Positions 16,591-63,267 of a DNA stretch of 64,000 nt are shown piece after piece. A program made the translations under genes and the position numbers. The notes beneath the pieces are model-generated. The model saw nothing but the letters and a program-made list of their open reading frames with translations, ran no database searches and was not told the origin of the DNA. Each line of letters begins with the position of its first letter. Position 1 is the first letter of the stretch. The stretch comes from Eledone cirrhosa (taxonomy: Eukaryota). The stretch is taken from the NCBI GenBank assembly GCA_964016885.1, contig OZ024753.1, positions 33,356,001 through 33,420,000 on the forward strand. The letters run 5' to 3'.

Positions 16591-17365
16591 ACTGGAAGTA
16601 AAACAAATGAATAAACAGACATACAGGTAGTGACTAAAAAATAAATTGTAATATGTTTGGGAGTGTTTGAAGATGAAATGAACAAAAAGTCTTCAAAACA
16701 GATTAATATTCTGAATTATAAAACACATACATACACAAAAGACAACAAAAAAAACCCCCCACACACACAAAAAAGCCACACACACACATACACAAAGATA
16801 ACAAAAAAAACCCCACACACACACACAAAATGGAAAGACAAAAAAATATGATTTATTCATGAAAGATGTAGAAAAAGAATTCTAACAACAATATAACATA
16901 TTTCATCTTCAGACTCTTGATAAACCATTTAGAATTAATGATAATATTTTAAATGTTAATAGATATTTTGATTATGAAGAAAAAAAATGTAGAAATTGCT
17001 GTGTGATTCTATCTATATTTCTGTGTTTTGTACAACTTTGTTTCAAAAGATATAGCTACTATAATGGAGGAGTGGAAAATTGCAGCAGTATAACTAATCG
17101 AAAGTTAGTTAAATATATTCTTTGCTTTGTCATGTTTCAGAGTTCAAATTTCCCACTGGATATTGAATTGCAATCTTTAATCATATTGATGAGATGAAAG
17201 TGAATCTAATTAATAATAAGTACTAATTGAATTCAATGTAATAAACCAAACATATATTTACTGTAGTAGTAGTAGTGGTGGTGGTGGTGGTAGATGTAAT
17301 GACAAAGGTAATGTTGAATACAGAGGGACTACTCTAAATAAATGAGTGTGTATATATATATATAT

Positions 17366-17678
17366 AATATAAGATCAAAAGATGGTTGAAAGAGTTCCAA
17401 GTATTTTATTATGCGCATTTCAAAAACAAATATCATCATGGGATGATATCTGCGTTCTCATCAGATAAAATAGGGAGACATGATATGAAGCTTAAAAAAC
17501 ACTTGTGAGCAGTGAAGTTTTAAATCATCCCATGATGATATTTGTTTTTTAAATGCGCATAATAAAATGCTTGGAACTCTTTTAACCATCTTTTGATCTT
17601 ATATTATTTATACTCCAGTCCTATAAACTGTAGAGTGCTACTTATCCGATATTTGCATTGCTTTATTGTGCTACCTCC

Positions 17679-17682
<4 letters not shown>
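17366..17682 (+). mobile_element. hammerhead-bearing fold-back element, family 1 (Penelope pLTR/retrozyme-like)
   Basis: Inverted arms (AAGATCAAAAGATGG...CCATCTTTTGATCTT) flanked by (TA)n on both sides; homologous to 44676-45100 and 62975-63256. Confidence 0.8.
17402..17472 (-). ncRNA. type I hammerhead ribozyme, family 1 (intact)
   Basis: Minus strand: TATTTTAT-CTGATGA-GAACGCAGATATCATCCCATGATGATATTTGTTTTT-GAAA-TGCGCA-TA-ATAAAATA; perfect 8-bp stem I, long stem II, palindromic stem III. Confidence 0.85.
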
Positions 17683-17716
<34 letters not shown>

Positions 17717-17852
17717 GGTTAAACAAGGTTCAATGAATAAATCAATGAATAAAGTTTCACAATAGATTAGAAGCACTCCACAGTGAGGGTTTCTGGAGTT
17801 ATTAATATTACTTAAAAATATTAATAAATATAGACATTCATGTGATCAAATA

Positions 17853-17918
17853 TATTTTATGATACATATTTCAGAAGCACTGAGCTATTTCAACAGTATG
17901 TACTCATCAGATAAAATA
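17853..17918 (-). ncRNA. type I hammerhead ribozyme, family 2
   Basis: TATTTTAT-CTGATGA-GTACATACTGTTGAAATAGCTCAGTGCTTCT-GAAA-TATGTA-TC-ATAAAATA. Confidence 0.8.
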
Positions 17919-18016
17919 AATTGCTGCTTGACATACCTTGACTATGTTGATGGTTATAATTCAGTCATGGCTGAATTATAACCATCACCATAGTTAAGGT
18001 ATGTCAAGCACCAACT

Positions 18017-18082
18017 TATTTTATCTGATAAGGATGTACTGTTGAAATAGCTCAGTGCCTCTGAAATATGTATAATAAAATA
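18017..18082 (+). ncRNA. hammerhead motif, family 2, opposite arm (core mutated to CTGATAA)
   Basis: TATTTTAT-CTGATAA-GGATGTACTG...CAGTGCCTCT-GAAA-TATGTA-TA-ATAAAATA. Confidence 0.65.
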
Positions 18083-18159
18083 TATTTGATCACATCAATG
18101 TCTATATTTATTAATATATATATATATTTATATTTATATATATATATATTTATATATAT

Positions 18160-18620
18160 TACACCTCTCCAAGACAATGTCACTGGACCGAGATCTTTGG
18201 CGGTACTCAGTAATAGAGAAGACCCGCCTTGCCTAAATACAAAGTAAACCTACTACAGTCAGTAGGCATCTCTAACAAAATACGCCCCCGTGACACCACC
18301 CTCACCCCATCCACACCGCCCCTTTCAATGTAAAGTTACGTTGGTGCCACAACATCCAGGCCGAAACAAATGAGATCGTGTAGGTGTCATGACAAAAATA
18401 CACACAGTCCACGCTGTAATGTGGCCGTGTAGGCAACACGGTAAAAACCTCCCAGTCCCACACTGTAAATGTGGTTGGTGTTAGGAAGGGCATCCAGCTG
18501 TAAAAAACCCGCTAGACAGTCCTATGCGAGCAAGACAACCACTCTTGCCTCAAGTGGGAAAACTCCCGTCCAAACCCATGCAAGCGTGGAACATGGACGT
18601 TAAACGATGATGATGATGAT
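18160..18620 (+). mobile_element. RTE-group LINE, 5'-truncated 3' end with (GAT)n tail
   Basis: Matches the ORF end at 33475-33550 (HLSKTMSLDRDLWRYSVIEKTRL) and the 3' UTR of 19965-20370; ends CATGCAAGCGTGGAACATGGACGTTAAAC(GAT)n. Confidence 0.9.
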
Positions 18621-18676
18621 ATATATGTATTTAAAACAAACCGAGGTTTCCTATTAAGGTCTTTATTGATTATACA

Positions 18677-18762
18677 TAGTTATGACCACTTCACAGATGT
18701 GTTGCTCGGGATCTATATAAATGCTATAGACCTAACTCCAATCCGATCTGCTCATCAGACAA
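18677..18762 (-). ncRNA. degenerate hammerhead motif
   Basis: Minus strand: TTGT-CTGATGA-GCAGAT...ATCTGT-GAAG-TGGTCA-TA-ACTA; GAAA is mutated to GAAG. Confidence 0.5.
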
Positions 18763-18981
18763 GTTAAGCAAGCAAAGTCAAAACCATAAGAATTTGATGT
18801 GTACAACATTCAGTACACCCATCTTCACATAATAGGCTAAATTCATTGAGTTATTCTATTGAGCTATCTCTCTTTGTTAACTTTATTATTTATGGAAATT
18901 ACCATTGGCTAAAACTATACCTAATTCTTTTTCTATGTGTTACTATGTAATTTCTGATTTGCAAACAAGTTAAGACTATAT

Positions 18982-19019: not shown

Positions 19020-19379
19020 GTTGCCCCTTGCTTCCAACAAAAATGATATCCTTCTATTCATAGGATGTTAAATTATACAGGATTTTATTCCTGATTGTTT
19101 TAAATTACCATCTCTTCTCTTGGAGCACCTAATAATAGCCTTTGGGTGTTTTGTTCATCATCTCCCATAAATAGGAATAATTTTAAAAAATAATGAATTT
19201 AATTTATACAACATTCATTATTAACCGTTGGATTATATAGCATATTTAACACAGGATCATCAAAAATTGAAAGTGGTTTATCTATGTGAGATGTTTGCAG
19301 GGCGATGTTTAACAAACTTGAACCACAGTAGAATATACGTTGAAAAAACACACCGTCACTGTATGAATTCACATGCACA

Positions 19380-19722
19380 GTCGTTACATTGACGACTGTA
19401 TCGGAGCCACGACCCTCACCCGAGTACAGCTCGACTCCTTTCTCTCCTTCTTCTGCTCCTTCCACCCCTCCCTCCACTTCACCACCTCTATCTCCACCAC
19501 CCACGTCCACTTCTTAGACATCTCCGTCGCCTTCGACCCCTCCCACCACTCCTTCAAACCCACCGACTCCCTCTCTTACCTCGACTTCACCTCTTCCCAC
19601 CCCACCCACACTAAACTCTCCATTCCCTACTCCCAACTTCTCAGGATCCGCCGCCTCTGTAGCCGTGATGCTGACTTCGAGTCCCAGGCCCTTTCCCTAG
19701 TCAGCCATTTCATCCGCAGAGG

Positions 19723-19726
<4 letters not shown>
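19380..19726 (+). pseudogene. Penelope-like element reverse transcriptase fragment
   Basis: RYIDD catalytic motif, FHPSLHFT, FLD, KPTD..YLDFTSSHP..K.SIPYSQLLRIRRLCS...F.RRGY, the characteristic PLE RT C-terminal/thumb region; runs into (TA)n. Confidence 0.9.
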
Positions 19727-19757
<31 letters not shown>

Positions 19758-19964: not shown

Positions 19965-21297
19965 TCATCATCATCATCATCGTTTAACGTCCATTTTCCA
20001 CGCTAGCATGGGTCTGGACGGGAATTATCCCACTTGAGGCAAGATTGGTTGTCTTGCTCAGGACTGTCTGGCGGGTTTTCTACGGCTGGGTGCCCTTCCC
20101 AATACCAACCACGTTTACAGTGTATACTGGGAGGTTTTTACCGTGTTACCTACACGGCCACATGACAGCGTGGACTGTGTGTTTTTTTTGTTGTGACACC
20201 TACACGACCTCATTTGTTTCGGACTGGATGTTGTGGTACCAACATAACTTCGCATTTAAGGGGGTGGTGTGGATGGGGTGGAGGTAGTGGGACGGGGGTG
20301 TATTTTGTTAGAGGTGCCTACTGACTGTAGGCAAGGAGGGTCTTCTGTATAACTGTGTAGTGCCAAAGATCTCAGTCCAGTGACACTGTCTTGGAGAGGT
20401 GTAAGTGTGTGAGGTTGGAATTTATCAAGTCATCCCAGGTTTTTCTGAGTCTGCCTACTCCGTGGCTACCGTCTATTTTTATCGCCCTGAACTTTTTTAT
20501 ACAGCTGTCGTCTTTCATGCGCATCACGTGACCGTACCAACGTAGTCTTCTTTCGAGTAAACAACATCTGATCCCTCTTATTCCTAATTTCTCCCTTAGT
20601 TCGTTTATGCTTTGCCGTTCACGCATATTACTATTACACATCCAGCGGAGCATGCAAGCTTCGTTCCTCTCCAGTCTGTGTATATCCTCTGCACACAATG
20701 CCCAGGTCTCACTGCCATGTAACATTGCTGTTCATATGCAAGCATCATACAGCCTGCCTTTCATTTTTAGAGAGAACCCTTTAGCGGCCAATAGTGGTAT
20801 AAGCTCTCTGAACTTTTTCCATCCCGTTCTGACTCTAGCTTCTGTACTTTCAGAGCACCCTCCCCCACTGCTGATTTTGTCACCCAGGTAACGGAAGCTG
20901 TCCACTATTTCTATAGAACCATCTGTGCAATGGAATGAGCTAGTATTCTGTGGGCACTTGCTGCTACTTATTGCACCAGAGCACCGGCCACATATAAAAT
21001 CTATATTCTTAGTTAGCTTACCTGTGATCCCACTACATCTTTTATGCACCCATACTTTGCATTTGGAACATAAAATGGAGTTTCTGCCTACTCCTTTCCT
21101 ACACACTGAGCATGGCCATTTCCCAGATGGGACCGGTGCCCTATTTTCCTTCCTACAAACTAGAACTTTAGTCTTAGACCAGTTAGCTTTAAGGCCTTTT
21201 GATTCTAGGCCATGCTTCCATGTTTGGAATTTCTTCTCTAGTTCCGTCATTGATTCAGCTATGAGCGTTAGATCATCTGCGTATAGGAGTTCCCATG
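19965..21297 (-). mobile_element. RTE-group LINE, 5'-truncated at WELLYADD
   Basis: ORFs 20732-21358 and 20372-20725 are split by a CGA>TGA stop; highly similar to 33475-34445; has the 3' UTR and (GAT)n tail. Confidence 0.93.
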
Positions 21298-22164
21298 TGC
21301 GTGTATTTCTGAACATTGATATACACACACATATATATATATATATATACTCACTCACAGATATATACTCCTACAGAAACAAGTACACAGATAGGCTTAG
21401 ACTACGTTACTTTAAGATAGTTGGAAATAAAATTTCAAGTAAAGCAATTTGTGTGTGTGTGTGTTGTGTTTTTTGTTTGTTTGTTTTTTTCTTTTAATAC
21501 AGAATGTAATCGAAATTGGCAGCAAACTTGAGCAACACCAATTTTACACTAGAAAATCACTTTGGTGTTTCCATAAAGTCAACAAATAAGCGATAGTAAG
21601 AACATGTAATTATTTACTTAATAGAAAATTGAGAAAAAAAAATCTTGAGGAAAATAATACAAAATACAAAAGAAAAAAAAAAGAGAAAATTAGTCTTAAT
21701 CTTTATATTTTTTGTTATCACTTTTATTCAAATTTATTGTCTTTTATTTTTTATTTACCTCATCCCGGCTTTTTCTTTATCTAAAAGTAAAAATTGATGG
21801 CAAATCCCCCAAAAAAGTACACCGAGAAAATGAGAAATTATGTATTTTTTCTAAGTATTGATAAAAAATAAATAGATGAATAAAAAATAAAGCAAAAGCT
21901 ATGCAGCATCATTATCTTCCACAATCCTTTCTAGGAAAGGGGAAATAGTGATGGCAGAATTCTTTGAGAATATGACAAAATGCTTTGTTGAATTTGTTCT
22001 GCTTCTCCGAGTTCAAATCCTGCTACTGAGGTCAACTATGTCTTTCATCCTTTCAGATGAAAGATTGGCAGAATTGTTAGAGCTTTACATGAGATGCCTT
22101 GAGGTAAATATTCTAGCACTTTAATGTTCTGTGTTCCCTGATGAGCAGACTTAATCTGTTACCC

Positions 22165-22420: not shown

Positions 22421-24543
22421 TAAGGGAGGCAGTTTCTTGTGGGATTCAAAATCTACTTGTTAACATAGTTTAGTTGATAATAATTATCTCACTATGATGC
22501 ACACCACTATTATTTTACTTTTATTTTATAACATATATATTGTTAAATCAAAAAAAGGATTTGTAATATTTTCGGCCAAGAGCAATATGCATAATTAAGA
22601 ATAAAAGGAGTAAACAGAAATAACCCAATAGGTAAAATAGCATGAATTTAGCCAATTAAGTGAAGGTGGGGTGTACTGAATCTTGTACACAGCTATTTTT
22701 TTTATTTTGTATTCTACCACCTGAGTGTCAAGATAAAAACAAATTACCTTGAGGCAATTGTTATTGACTCGAAAGATATATCTTTCAGATTTAACAAGTG
22801 ACATTGGTGAGGACTTGGCTAAGTTGTGATATATGATTGAGTGTGGTTTTTGTTGTCAAATTTCATTTGGAAATTATATATTTTTGTAAGTCATTAATTG
22901 TAAATTATCATTAACAATATTTGTAATTTGAAATAAATTTGTCGTTGGCGTATTTAAAAAAAAAAGTTTAAAATATAAAATAAAAAATATTTAAAAAAAA
23001 TATGTATAAATATATTTGTTTTAAATATATTAGTTTTTTTTTTTTCTGAAACCACTTAATCAGAAATAGAAATTAAAAAATGTAAAACATTTCATGGAAT
23101 TAGATATTTTCCAAATTAATATAATGTCATTACCTTGAAATTTAGGATTACTAACAGATATTCTGAGTTATAGATGTGATTTAGCACTTTTTCTAACAGG
23201 GTTAGATCTTCATTGCTTGAAATTTATTTGCTTATCACATTAACAAATGGAATTTCTTGGCCTAAAACTTACATTTATATTAATCATTTGCTTTTTACAC
23301 TGAAATATTTTCTTGATTATCAAAAACCATCATTAAAAGAATTTTGAGATTAAAAACTTTTAATGTTTAGACTTACCTGACACCTGCATATCATTTCATT
23401 TAAGCCTTTGAACTAAACATATTTCAACATGAACTCACCTGCAAAAGAAAAAAAACAAAAAAAAACATATATATATATATACATACATCCACTTGCGCAC
23501 ACAAAATCTATACACACAACCATATATGTGTGCAACTTTGCTATAATACTATGTACTCCTTCTTTTGATAAACCAACTATTTACTTACCAGCGTAATGAT
23601 TGTTTCCCTCTCCCACACTCTCTCTCTCACACACACACTCTCTTTCTCTCTCTCTCACACACACACACACTCTCTCTCTCTCTCTCTCCCCTCTTTTTTG
23701 ATGAATACATTATATTGTTATTTGTTTGCATGCTCGATTTTTTTTGTCCTTATTAAAAGACATTCTTTTTGTCCTCTGTTTCTATGTTGTGTTGTCTCTT
23801 ATACAACTCTGCATCTTTCTAATGATTTGCTGTGTTCAATATTGTGCAACACCACCCTTATAAACGAAATTGTAAAACCTTTCTTCACTTATAAATACTT
23901 CATGCACAGGCATCACTTGATCTAAATATATTTCACGAGTGTTGTCTGAGCATGGCTGGTCATAGCCAAAAAAGGCTTTTTTTCGCTGCAGCATATGCAA
24001 AAAGGAATGTAAGTCCTTGGCAAGATTAAGAGACCAAGTTTGTGCCGCCCATGTGTGAGAGAAGGATGAAGTGAGAGCAATTCTTGAAATCATGTGCTGC
24101 AAACATTTACCTCACTCTCATATATATATCATCATCATTTTACATCCATTCTTCCATGCTGTGTGTGTGTATATATAGAGAAAGAGGTGTATATATATGT
24201 ATGCAATAAATCAGCAATTTGTTCATTCTTTCATAATTTCTAAACTAATACATGTGTTATATTCTCTATAAAAATTTACAGTTCACCTGTTTTAATTAAT
24301 TTGAAGAACTCTGCACCTTTCACTACGATGTCAAGGTTCAATGACTTTTTCCTCAGAGTATCTTTCTACGCCATCTTAATTGTACTCTTCACATGATATA
24401 TAATCGTTTTACCATCTTCTCACTAGCTTCTTTCTATTGATCTCCAGTTGATCACTGCTTACACCTCCCAGACAGGACCAGAGATCAGGTTGCTTCTCAG
24501 ATATACCAACCAATGTATTGTAGTACAAAGATCTTTCAGAAAA

Positions 24544-33424: not shown

Positions 33425-35935
33425 GTGTATTTTGTTAGAGATGCCTACTGGCTGTAGTAGGTTTTACTTTGTATTTAGGTAAGGCGGGTCTTCTCTATTA
33501 CTGAGTACCGCCAAAGGTCTCGGTCCAGTGACATTGTCTTGGAGAGGTGTAAGTGTGTGAGGTCAGAATTTATCAGCTCGTCCCAGGTTTTTCTGGGTCT
33601 GCCTACTCCGTAGCTACCGTCTATCTTTATTGCCCTGCACTTTGTTATACAGCTGTCGTCTTTCATGCGTATCACGTGACCATACCAACGTAGCCTTCTC
33701 TCGAGTAAACAACATCTGATCCCTCTTATTTCTAATTTTTTCCTTAGTTCGCTTATGCTTTGCCGTTCACGTATGTTACTATTACACATCCAGCGGAGCA
33801 TGCAAGCTTCGTTCCTCTCTAGTCTGCGTATATCCTCTGCACACAATGCCCAGGTCTCACTGCCATGCAACATTGCTGTTCGTATGCAGGCATCGTACAA
33901 CCTGCCTTTCATTCTTAGGGAGAACCCTTTAGCGGCTAATAGTGGTATAAGCTCTCTGAACTTCTTCCAACCAGTTCTGACTCTAGCTACTGTACTTTCA
34001 GAGCACCCTCCCCAACTGCTGATTTTGTCGCCCAGGTAACGGAAGCTGTCCACTATTTCTATAGAACCCTCTGCGCAATTGAAAGAGCTAGTATTTTGTG
34101 GGCACTTGCTGCTACTTATTGCACCAGAGCACCGGCCACATGTAAAATCTATGTTCTTAGTTAGCTTACCTGTGATCCCACTACATCTTTTATGCACCCA
34201 TACTTTGCATTTGGGACATAAAATGAAGTTTCTACCTACGCCTTTCCTACACACTGAGCATGGCCATTTCCCGGAAGGGACCGGCGCCTTATTTTCTTTC
34301 CTACAAACTAGAACTTTAGTCTTAGCCAGGTTAATTTTAAGGCCTTTTGATTCTACGCCGTGCTTCCATGTTTGGAATTTCTTCTCTAGCTCGGCCATTG
34401 ATTCAGCTATGAGCGTTAGATCGTCTGCGTATAGGAGTTCCCATGGGCAGCCGGTCTTGAACTTCTCTGTTATAGCCTGAAGGGCAATAATAAATAGGAG
34501 GGGGCTAAGAACAGAGCCCTGATGGACACCAACCTTTACGCTAAACTCTTCACTATATTCGTTGTTAATTCTAACCTTGCTGACTGTTTCTTTATACATG
34601 GCTTGTATAGCTCTGACAAGCCATTCGTCAACACCTAGTTTTCTAAGAGCCCACCAGATAATGGAACGGGGGACTCTGTCGAAGGCTTTCTCCAAGTCAA
34701 CAAAAGCTAAGTATAGGGGTTTACTTTTAGCTAGGTACTTCTCCTGTAGTTGTCGTACAATGAAAAGAGCGTCTGTGGTACTTTTGCCTGACACAAACCC
34801 GAACTGCATTTCATCTAGATCAATTCTCTCTCATTAGTTGCGCTATTACTTTTTCCGTGACCTTCATGACCTGGTCGATTAATTTAATGCCTCTATAGTT
34901 ACACCTATCTAGGGCATCTCCTTTACCCTTGTAACAGTTAATGATGATGCTGCTACGCCAGTCCTTCGGAACAACCCCATTCTGTATGACTTGGTTTACT
35001 ATCCGGGAGACCATGGTGTGTCCCACCGTTCCAGAGGCTTTCAGCATCTCAGCAACTATTTCCAAAGGCCCAGCCGCCTTTCCCGTCTTCATATCTTTGA
35101 TTGCCTTACTTATTATACTCCCTTCAACTAACACTGCTGGTCCCTCTATTGGGTCGATGTGGGGGAGACTGTCTTTCTCCCATTTATTCTCGTCATTTAG
35201 AAGCCTTTCGTAGTGACTCTTCCATGCTACCTTCTTATCAGCATCAGTGATGGCAAGTACGCCTTCATCATTAAGTACACACTTCTCCCCGACAATATCA
35301 CGGTTTTCCTTGACACATTGCCTAGCAATCCTGAACACCTCCCGTTTTTGGTCCGCGCGTTGTAGAACATGCTTGAACTTTCTTTCCTCTGCTTCCCTTC
35401 TTGCGAAGTACACTTGTCTTCTAGCTTCCCTCCTGGCCACTTGATAGTCTTCTCTACTTACCCCATCCCGCCATACTTTCCAAGCCTGCTTTTTGGCCTT
35501 AATTGACTCCTCCACCTTACTGTTCCACCACCATGTTACTCTCCTACCTACCGGCCTGCTCCAGCCACAGACTTCGTCTGCCACCGTCAGCAGGTTTGCT
35601 TTCAGGAATTCCCACTGATCCTCTATATTATACGACTAATTGCTCTTCCTTACTGTCGAAAGCATCAAGTAATATGCTTTGAAATTTATTTCTGGCTGTG
35701 GGGTCCTTTAGCTTCCATATTTTTCTCCTGAGGATAGTCCTCTTCTGCTGTCTAGTACGTCTCGTCCTGACTATGAGGTCGCTAATTATCAGTCTATGTT
35801 GGGAGGTGCATTCTTCATGGGGGAGGGATTTAGTGTTAACAACAGACACTCTGTCACGTCTTCTGGTAAGGATATAATCTACCTGGCTTGTGTGTTCCCC
35901 CGATCTATAGGTGATCAAGTGATTGTCTCGTTTTT
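33425..35935 (-). mobile_element. RTE-group (RTE-X-like) LINE, 5'-truncated, about 2.5 kb
   Basis: Collinear ORF pieces 35918-35628 (end of the AP endonuclease: TY.SG...SQVDYIL...SQHRL), 35584-34820 and 34809-33475; one stop and one frameshift; the 5' side runs into a microsatellite. Confidence 0.95.
33475..34809 (-). CDS. reverse transcriptase of the RTE-group LINE, with inserted PHD finger (frameshift-isolated part)
   Basis: QFGF, FVDLEKAFD, GVHQGSVLSPLLF, LLYADD, FRYLG, RRLRWYGHV, GRPRKTW motifs. Confidence 0.9.
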   Translation of the reverse strand: MQFGFVSGKSTTDALFIVRQLQEKYLAKSKPLYLAFVDLEKAFDRVPRSIIWWALRKLGVDEWLVRAIQAMYKETVSKVRINNEYSEEFSVKVGVHQGSVLSPLLFIIALQAITEKFKTGCPWELLYADDLTLIAESMAELEKKFQTWKHGVESKGLKINLAKTKVLVCRKENKAPVPSGKWPCSVCRKGVGRNFILCPKCKVWVHKRCSGITGKLTKNIDFTCGRCSGAISSSKCPQNTSSFNCAEGSIEIVDSFRYLGDKISSWGGCSESTVARVRTGWKKFRELIPLLAAKGFSLRMKGRLYDACIRTAMLHGSETWALCAEDIRRLERNEACMLRWMCNSNIRERQSISELRKKLEIRGIRCCLLERRLRWYGHVIRMKDDSCITKCRAIKIDGSYGVGRPRKTWDELINSDLTHLHLSKTMSLDRDLWRYSVIEKTRLT

Positions 35936-61635: not shown

Positions 61636-61648
61636 GTATATCATTATC

Positions 61649-62162
61649 GTTATACTTTGGGAGGGTCATGTTGCCAATAAGAAACACACGCACCAGTTGC
61701 TTTCACTTCAATTTATTATATATTTATAAATTTATAAATTTACAAATTTACAAACCCATAAATTTCTGGTTGGTTGGTTGGTTCCACAACCAGATAGTTG
61801 TTTATATATATAGTCATAGTCCTCCCGTCACACACTCTGTGACCTCCTCAGTGACTGGGGATTCCTTTCTTCGTTTCTGTGCCCCTCCCTTCTTCTATCT
61901 CACGCCATTTTGTTTCAGAAGAAGGGAGGGGCACAGAAACGAAGAAAGGAATCCCCAGTCACTGAGGAGGTCACAGAGTGTGTGACGGGAGGACTATGAC
62001 TATATATAAACAACTATCTGGTTGTGGAACTAACCAACCAACCAGAAATTTATGGGTTTGTAAATTTGTAAATTTATAAATTTATAAATATATAATAAAT
62101 TGAAGTGAAAGCAACTGGTGCGTGTGTTTCTTATTGGCAACATGACCCTCCCAAAGTATAAC
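61649..62162. repeat. near-perfect long inverted repeat (arms about 247 bp, 20-nt loop)
   Basis: 61649-61896 is the reverse complement of 61917-62162, apart from about one mismatch and one TA indel. Confidence 0.95.
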
Positions 62163-62710
62163 AATATCGGTTTCAACACACGATTTCAGATAAAGAATCT
62201 TGCTAAACAAATTCAGAAACGAAATATATCATTATCATTTAACATCTAATGTTCTATGCTTGTATGTGTTAGAAACACTTCATTTTTGAATTTGTTTCGC
62301 AAGATTCTTATCTGAAAATGTATGTTGAAACAGATATTGTTCTACTTTGGGAGAGTCATACTACCAATAACAACAAAATAGCCATTCGATTATTAAACTA
62401 ACTGGCAGGGTGTTTATAATAAATTGAAGTGAAAATCCAACAGATGTGTGTTTTTATAGGCAGCATGGCCCTCAAAGTATAATATATATATATACATACA
62501 TACAAACGTTCCATAGCTAAGGGGCTTTTGGGGAAACTTGTTGAATAATCTAACAGTTTTGTTAGTTATTGACTCTAAATATGTTAATATAATCATGTTT
62601 TTAATTTCTTTCTTAGTCTTGTAATGGTGGTGAAAAAGCGCGAGTTAATAATAATATACATGAACAGTATATATAGTTAAGCTTCTTCAATCTGAAACTG
62701 CTAAGACAGG

Positions 62711-62974: not shown

Positions 62975-63256
62975 GTATCATGAGATGATATTTGCGTTCT
63001 CATCAGATAAAATAGGGAGACATATGAAGCTTAAAAAACACTTGCGAGCAGTGAAGTGTTAAATCAACATCTGATGAGAACGCAAATATCATCCCATGAT
63101 GATATTTGTTTTTGAAATGCGCATAATAAAATACATGGAACTCTTTTAACCATCTTTTGGTTTTATATTATTTATACTCCAGTCCTATAAACTGTTGAGT
63201 TCTACTTATCCGATATGTGCATTGCTTTATTGTGCTACAATAAAACTCACCTCTAC
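62975..63256 (+). mobile_element. hammerhead-bearing fold-back element, family 1
   Basis: Same sequence as the copies at 17366 and 44676, with a partial inverted arm at 62975-63070. Confidence 0.8.
63069..63133 (+). ncRNA. hammerhead core, family 1 (5' strand of stem I cut to 2 nt)
   Basis: AT-CTGATGA-GAACGCAAATATCATCCCATGATGATATTTGTTTTT-GAAA-TGCGCA-TA-ATAAAATA. Confidence 0.75.
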
Positions 63257-63267
63257 ATATATATGTC

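Follow-up and report, generated by a model that had tools for sequence, protein, structure and literature searches.

What kind of element is a short, loopless palindrome that carries a hammerhead ribozyme motif on each strand and lies between two tracts of TA repeats? The question is raised by a locus in a 64-kb stretch of Eledone cirrhosa DNA, analyzed in full and referred to here as the window, which is AT-rich and contains many microsatellites and LINE fragments. The palindrome, called family 2 in the initial annotation, has relatives of a distinct family, family 1, at 17359-17681, 44666-45101 and 62977-63257, each with inverted arms, a tail on one arm and TA flanks; the 62977-63257 copy has a broken left arm. 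The best reading is an inverted insertion of the pseudo-LTR (pLTR) of a Penelope-like element (PLE), a class the initial annotation did not name, which explains all of the features. We hold it probable that family 2 is a gene-less head-to-head pair of pLTRs, likely a PLE remnant inserted by an enzyme of the Neptune/Nematis type, and that its ribozymes are now inactive, as predicted. Any tie to a specific PLE is through anatomy only.

Architecture of the palindrome

Family 2 is bordered on the left by a (TA)14 tract (17683..17710), its likely insertion target, which also borders the tail of the family 1 copy at 17359-17681, and on the right by an imperfect (TA)n tract (18118..18160). Two arms of 150 nt each run outward from a loopless head-to-head junction (17960..17975, centered at 17967/17968): the long, or tailed, arm on the minus strand (17818..17967) and the short arm on the plus strand (17968..18117), which ends 43 nt past the hammerhead cleavage site. 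They match at 138 of 150 bases, with 12 substitutions, no gaps and no loop. The palindrome is predicted to fold into a hairpin of -213 kcal/mol (z = -26.6), and none of 100 shuffles was equally stable. In each arm the center lies 57 nt upstream of hammerhead position C3, and the two C3 positions are 115 bp apart.

The initial annotation had described arms of about 150 bp, without a loop, around 17967/8, and these are present as described. It had also given 17712..18118 as the extent of a palindrome of about 300 bp; the palindrome proper occupies 17818-18117, but that span also holds an unpaired one-sided tail of 106 nt (17712..17817, minus strand), not described at the time, which extends the minus-strand arm at its 3' end. 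With 106 unique bases beyond the end of the left arm, the termini of family 2 are not inverted repeats.

No coding capacity is evident, all three sense frames being closed in each arm, and a tblastn search of 35 PLE proteins against the element gave no match at E<0.1. Neither blastn nor nhmmer found a second copy in the 64-kb window, the next-best nhmmer matches there being family 1 sequences (E 0.002-0.18); with a single copy in the window, the standing of family 2 as a true family is unproven. The literature searched contains no description of the family 2 sequence or of a fixed-length, palindromic, ORF-less PLE family, although this is weak evidence of absence because Repbase, Dfam and subscription journals fell outside its scope. 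A motif search of supplements to PMC8557442 and PMC4209133 (file 2) returned no match. Searches of prokaryote genomes with two family 2 patterns, and of plasmid and phage collections, were negative, as expected, which says nothing about the animal genome; a bacterial promoter scan of the locus, irrelevant for an animal locus, likewise found nothing.

Comparison with family 1

Both families carry the tail on one arm only, with a length of about 88 nt in family 1 and 106 nt in family 2. Past the cleavage site, the short arm continues for 43 nt in family 2 and for about 43-45 nt in family 1; the TA tract makes these values uncertain by a few bases. A predicted AT-rich hairpin straddles the end point of the short arm, and the family 2 tail starts within it. 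A further hairpin, of the type ACTCC...GAGTG, is predicted in the tails of both families, at 17765..17798 on the minus strand in family 2. When a profile built from the three family 1 tails was used to search the window, its best match outside family 1 was the family 2 tail, on the expected strand (E 0.28). In alignments of the family 2 tail to the three family 1 tails, 19, 4 and 48 of 2000 shuffles reached the observed score, these three tests being non-independent. We take this as moderate, weakly significant evidence that the hairpin motif may be common to the tails of both families.

Three other regions have no sequence resemblance between the families: 601 of 2000 shuffles score as well as the comparison of the 5' flanks, 1108 of 2000 as well as that of the 35-nt 3' flanks, and 1950 of 2000 as well as that of the stem II sequences. 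The early claim that stem II and the flanks differ from family 1 is therefore right for these three regions but not for the similar tails. From center to core the distance measures 57 nt in family 2, against 67 nt in family 1. The arms of family 2 have diverged by 8%, against 3-5% in family 1, a difference we read as one of age. The neighboring family 1 copy does face family 2 with 3' end toward 3' end, as had been proposed, one tail ending at about 17681 and the other beginning at 17712, with the TA tract between. The proposal that family 2 is related to family 1 yet distinct from it is borne out by a shared stem I, stem II geometry and short-arm offset, together with the similar tail hairpin.

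These comparisons bear on the idea that a solo pLTR was later duplicated as an inverted repeat by DNA repair, or that family 2 is a MITE or foldback DNA transposon with a captured hammerhead. Short, non-coding inverted repeats between TA-rich flanks would suit either origin, and elements of the latter class (PMC8969392) are likewise short non-coding inverted repeats, but family 2 differs from them in having no terminal inverted repeats, with its 106 unique bases outside the left arm, and in carrying ribozyme motifs. The same short-arm offset, abutting TA, is moreover seen in two families of distinct sequence, a regularity that repair is not expected to repeat, and we consider such an origin unlikely.

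Hammerhead motifs and their condition

A strict scan for the type I pattern, requiring stem I to pair at 8 of 8 positions by Watson-Crick rules, finds five matches in the window, two in family 2 and three in family 1, and none in 100 block-wise dinucleotide shuffles of the window. The family 2 motifs occupy 17853..17918 on the minus strand (C3 at 17910) and 18017..18082 on the plus strand (C3 at 18025). Against the core C3-U4-G5-A6-N7-G8-A9 plus G12-A13-A14, the minus arm is complete (CTGATGA...GAAA, with an AUC site), and the plus arm, with CTGATAA and an AUA site, deviates by a change of G8 to A; the latter description agrees with that given initially. The A15.1-U16.1 pair and an NUH site are present in both. 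Stem I pairs at all eight positions in both arms, by A-U pairs only, and is identical across all five complete motifs of the two families, as the initial annotation had stated. The 8-nt stem III region pairs with itself at 8 of 8 positions, including two G-U pairs, giving a palindromic loop III; such self-complementarity is the design of dimer-type hammerheads (PMC4209133).

Rfam hammerhead models produce no match in the window at gathering score, and the 26 Rfam matches obtained at E up to 10 include no hammerhead family; the family 1 copies are missed as well. Inspection ruled out an alternative register that uses the GAAA within stem II, since stem I then fails to pair.

The two arms differ in stem II. 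In the plus arm 9 of 10 pairs form, including 4 of 5 at the base, with predicted probabilities of 0.7-0.8 above the first pair; the minus arm forms 7 of 10, with 2 of 5 at the base, at predicted probabilities of 0.05 or less. The minus-arm core, previously called intact and assigned a UC site, has the right letters and the right site, but it is intact in letters only, because merely two of its five basal stem II pairs form. Stem II pair 4 is a pyrimidine-pyrimidine mismatch in all five motifs of both families, and two further pairs change on both sides between motifs. Covariation across the five sequences is no better than a shuffle control (80 of 500 reach the score), yet the register beats all slid alternatives. 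Pair 10.1-11.1 is G-U in three of the five motifs and A-U in two, never G-C.

Folding predictions for the isolated family 2 arms assign stem I pairs a probability of 0.00-0.02. Drawn as an active dimer, the minus arm comes to +0.2 kcal/mol, against a minimum free energy of -24.2 kcal/mol for the dimer, and the active dimer of the plus arm to -21.8; these energies compare the two family 2 arms only, values for family 1 not being comparable with stem II limited to 10 pairs. In the plus arm, G8A breaks the C3-G8 pair. That pair is required in the system of PMC11167929, where G8C or C3G abolishes cleavage, and the tolerated natural variant at positions 3 and 8 is U3-A8 (PMC4209133); we infer that C3.A8 is also disabling. 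Both ribozymes are thus predicted to be crippled, the plus arm by G8A and the minus arm, whose hammerhead is expected to misfold, at the base of stem II, and neither arm as it stands should self-cleave. The source element probably carried a complete ribozyme, with a different part lost from each arm.

In RNA read through the center, on either strand, the predicted probability of stems I and II is 0.0, and a hammerhead could be exposed, according to these predictions, solely by a transcript that starts near the palindrome center. The fold-back mechanism first proposed for both families is plausible for the making of the DNA palindrome, but in RNA, folding back abolishes both hammerheads.

The same results weigh on the suggestion that family 2 is a live fold-back RNA replicon, retrozyme-like or viroid-like, whose hammerheads work on both strands to release and circularize a hairpin RNA. 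A motif on each strand, the very stable hairpin of -213 kcal/mol and the self-complementary loop III are what such a replicon might show. Each strand, however, carries a single sense hammerhead, leaving no unit between two same-strand cut sites, and in addition to the loss of stems I and II from both read-through strands, G8A is present in the plus arm, while the minus arm drawn as an active dimer lies far above its minimum free energy. Non-LTR retrozymes, for their part, are head-to-tail tandems. A replicon of this kind is, in our judgment, quite improbable.

Differences between the arms

The 12 differences between the arms, seven transitions and five transversions, are scattered and show no A-to-G bias, and no ADAR signature is seen between the two arms. 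The A/G differences that can be polarized run from G to A. A host-selected small-RNA gene, whether a miRNA or a hairpin siRNA locus, would account for a long and stable hairpin, and Rfam miRNA models do match its center, the best at 45.8 bits. All of these matches nevertheless fall far below gathering scores (45.8 against 90) and reflect a generic hairpin shape, mismatches are scattered along the arms, and the G-to-A direction is not that expected from ADAR, so that this account appears very unlikely. Loopless palindromes are a known type of chimera, but an assembly or fold-back read artifact is hardly credible at this locus, where 12 substitutions but no indels separate the arms and where family 1 shows the same design at three loci.

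TA flanks and a nearby PLE enzyme fragment

Both ends of family 2 lie within 2 bp of a tract of (TA)4 or longer, as do six of the seven intact termini of families 1 and 2 taken together, compared with a background of 1.3-3.2% of positions. In this count two termini share one tract, the broken left end at 63 kb is excluded, and the seventh terminus adjoins a shorter TA run. The same target, (TA)n, had been proposed for both families and is what the termini show. No target-site duplication (TSD) is readable within the TA tracts.

At 1.26 kb from the palindrome lies a fragment of a PLE reverse transcriptase (RT) with thumb region (19376-19720, plus strand), ending in a (TA)15 tract (19724-19753). 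Pfam does not recognize the RT fragment (about 19367-19720); it was identified as PLE by a homolog search that returned 35 homologs at 34-58% identity, several with both RT and GIY-YIG domains. Eight of the nine long homologs examined contain the CX2-5CxxC linker, which marks Neptune and Nematis elements (PMC8557442). There are no other PLE coding pieces in the window by tblastn, and no sequence link is found between the RT fragment and family 2. To judge from the fragment, an enzyme of the right kind, from a PLE, has been present in this genome.

A probable inverted pLTR insertion

Because the anatomy of family 2 matches published PLE insertions and a PLE enzyme fragment lies nearby, we infer that a short pLTR RNA was inserted into (TA)n by target priming. 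In PLE insertions carrying the endonuclease, of Neptune and Nematis type, an inverted, 5'-truncated copy stands beside the pLTR, with a tail at one end only; hammerheads occur in the pLTRs, near the 3' end, and a preference for (TA)n hides TSDs (PMC8557442). Their head-to-head copies meet at palindromic junctions that have been attributed to self-priming, solo pLTRs occur, and pLTRs are sufficient for mobilization in trans (PMC3846280). Family 2 likewise has a palindromic head-to-head copy, a hammerhead within the repeat and (TA)n flanks without a readable TSD, all three expected of an ORF-less pLTR insertion. It also has an extension at one end only, although at 106 nt this is longer than the published tail of 30-40 bp. 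It differs from the elements described in PMC8557442 and PMC3846280 in lacking an ORF, and the match between them is one of anatomy.

The biochemistry of a PLE protein offers a route to such a structure: it cuts and extends both strands of AT-rich DNA with uncleaved RNA as template, and a stem-loop downstream of the hammerhead contains two start sites for reverse transcription, the sequence between which becomes the tail (PMC11167929). For family 2, the PLE literature suggests that a GIY-YIG endonuclease would nick the TA tract and that the RT would prime on uncleaved pLTR RNA at the distal 3' start site and copy about 256 nt, yielding the tailed arm. That event would also yield the inverted arm, most likely because the end of the cDNA folded back or primed again on the template already in use. 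This arm would stop 43 nt past the cleavage site of the hammerhead, where the proximal start site would lie, so that the tail would correspond to the interval between the two start sites. At insertion the arms would have been alike, presumably holding a complete dimer-type hammerhead with intact core, paired stem II and self-complementary loop III. Neutral decay to the present 8% divergence would then have damaged the core in one arm and stem II in the other. Read-through transcription today is predicted to give a 150-bp double-stranded RNA hairpin, possibly a substrate for RNAi or ADAR, but no working ribozyme.

Synthesis of both arms from one template is favored by two observations on family 1. 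The arms of the 44 kb copy are closest to each other, with 6 substitutions in 172 positions against 10-18% (untrimmed) to the other copies, and one base, at a single site, is common to both arms of the 17 kb copy but missing from those at 44 kb and 63 kb. In family 2, however, the two bases of the stem II pair-4 mismatch are exchanged between the arms (C.U in one, U.C in the other), a pattern in the sequence that would also fit two different templates.

Relation to known hammerhead-bearing elements

The motifs resemble the minimal, palindromic-loop hammerheads associated with PLEs (PMC4209133) in their type I topology, U-rich or AU-rich stem I, long stem II and a palindromic loop III that implies activity as a dimer. 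PLE-associated hammerheads are also found as pairs on opposite strands 100-700 bp apart, as in Schistosoma mansoni (PMC4209133), a range that includes the 115 bp between the C3 positions of family 2. Unlike the hammerheads of that paper, those of family 2 have G-U rather than a conserved G-C at pair 10.1-11.1, a stem I of 8 bp and a stem II mismatch at pair 4 that is kept in both families, and both family 2 copies are damaged.

Metazoan non-LTR retrozymes (PMC7761336; bioRxiv 10.64898/2026.07.22.740005) are likewise short, non-coding and equipped with a type I hammerhead, and a PLE origin and PLE-dependent mobility have been proposed for them. They are head-to-tail tandems whose same-strand ribozymes release circles, whereas the two arms of family 2 stand head-to-head and each strand holds a single sense ribozyme. 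In the Poseidon element PAc of the green anole (PMC11167929), the tail arises from two RT start sites in a stem-loop and the target is AT-rich, and the short arm of family 2 similarly ends in a predicted hairpin; PAc is autonomous, with an ORF that starts at stem II, while family 2 has no open frame. Family 2 is therefore not an autonomous PLE, having no RT/GIY-YIG ORF, nor a non-LTR retrozyme, not being tandem, nor a MITE, having no terminal repeats.

Significance of the shared features

As a single locus, family 2 is a decayed transposon remnant, and its value is comparative. Stem I, stem II geometry, the short-arm end and the tail hairpin are kept in two adjacent but distinct families and point to cis-signals for the PLE enzyme. 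How PLEs form inverted structures and what role their hammerheads play are open questions (PMC8557442, PMC3846280), for which a natural template of 250 nt would be a compact test substrate. Were they transcribed from end to end, palindromes of this kind would supply long double-stranded RNA for RNAi and A-to-I editing.

A bolder reading, which we regard as possible but doubtful, is that families 1 and 2, rather than leftovers of random 5' truncation, are dedicated, ORF-less PLE parasites of 320-440 bp, with the 5' end of the RNA fixed about 60 nt upstream of the hammerhead, that rebuild a head-to-head palindrome at each (TA)n insertion. A miniature of fixed length would be supported by the family 1 left arms, which share a 5' end (the same sequence to within 2 nt in the 44 kb and 63 kb copies, which represent two subfamilies, and to within about 6 nt in the 17 kb copy), and by the similar center-to-core distances of the two families (67 and 57 nt). 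If this were so, these elements would correspond, in inverted form, to the tandem non-LTR retrozymes and would be a retro-analog of MITEs, seeding double-stranded RNA hairpins genome-wide, and stem I, the pair-4 mismatch, the 43-nt offset and the tail hairpin would map signals for PLE protein binding and priming.

Other observations on family 1 and the window

The 44 kb family 1 copy, a palindrome without a loop, has 8 bp duplicated at its center and is embedded at 44.7-45.1 kb in several kb of degenerate TA-rich repeat (about 41600-48400, 5-17% G+C). The tailed arm lacks its 5' part in the copies at 17 kb and 63 kb, where it is joined through a short microhomology. Differences in stem II between family 1 subfamilies preserve pairing (G-U to A-U, C-G to U-G). 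The minus-strand family 1 motif at 17402-17472, in which loop III is perfectly palindromic, is the leading candidate for an active ribozyme.

A decayed hammerhead-like motif lies at about 18626-18770 (minus strand, C3 at 18758), with a CTGATGA core, GAAG in place of GAAA and a stem II region of 57 nt; it was matched by a relaxed scan only, which gives 10 matches in the window and 0-3 in each of 20 shuffles. Upstream of it, 18781-18932 has an inverted homolog, 72% identical, at 22552-22708. A near-perfect palindrome at 61645-62166, with arms of about 260 bp that are 99% identical in their outer part and a short loop near 61905, has a TA tract on its left and no hammerhead pattern; it may be a different element, inserted head-to-head more recently.

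A repeat of about 460 bp ending in (GAT/CAT)n occurs at 18159-18620 (plus strand) and 19967-20404 (minus strand), inverted around the PLE RT fragment, with a third match near 33511-33552 at the 3' end of a LINE ORF. Non-LTR retrotransposon RT ORFs are found on the minus strand at 33475-35635, 20735-21370 and 54731-55162, the first two with a PHD-finger match inside the RT region. The best named animal homologs of the LINE ORF at 33475-34830 are cnidarian and lancelet proteins, 49-56% identical.
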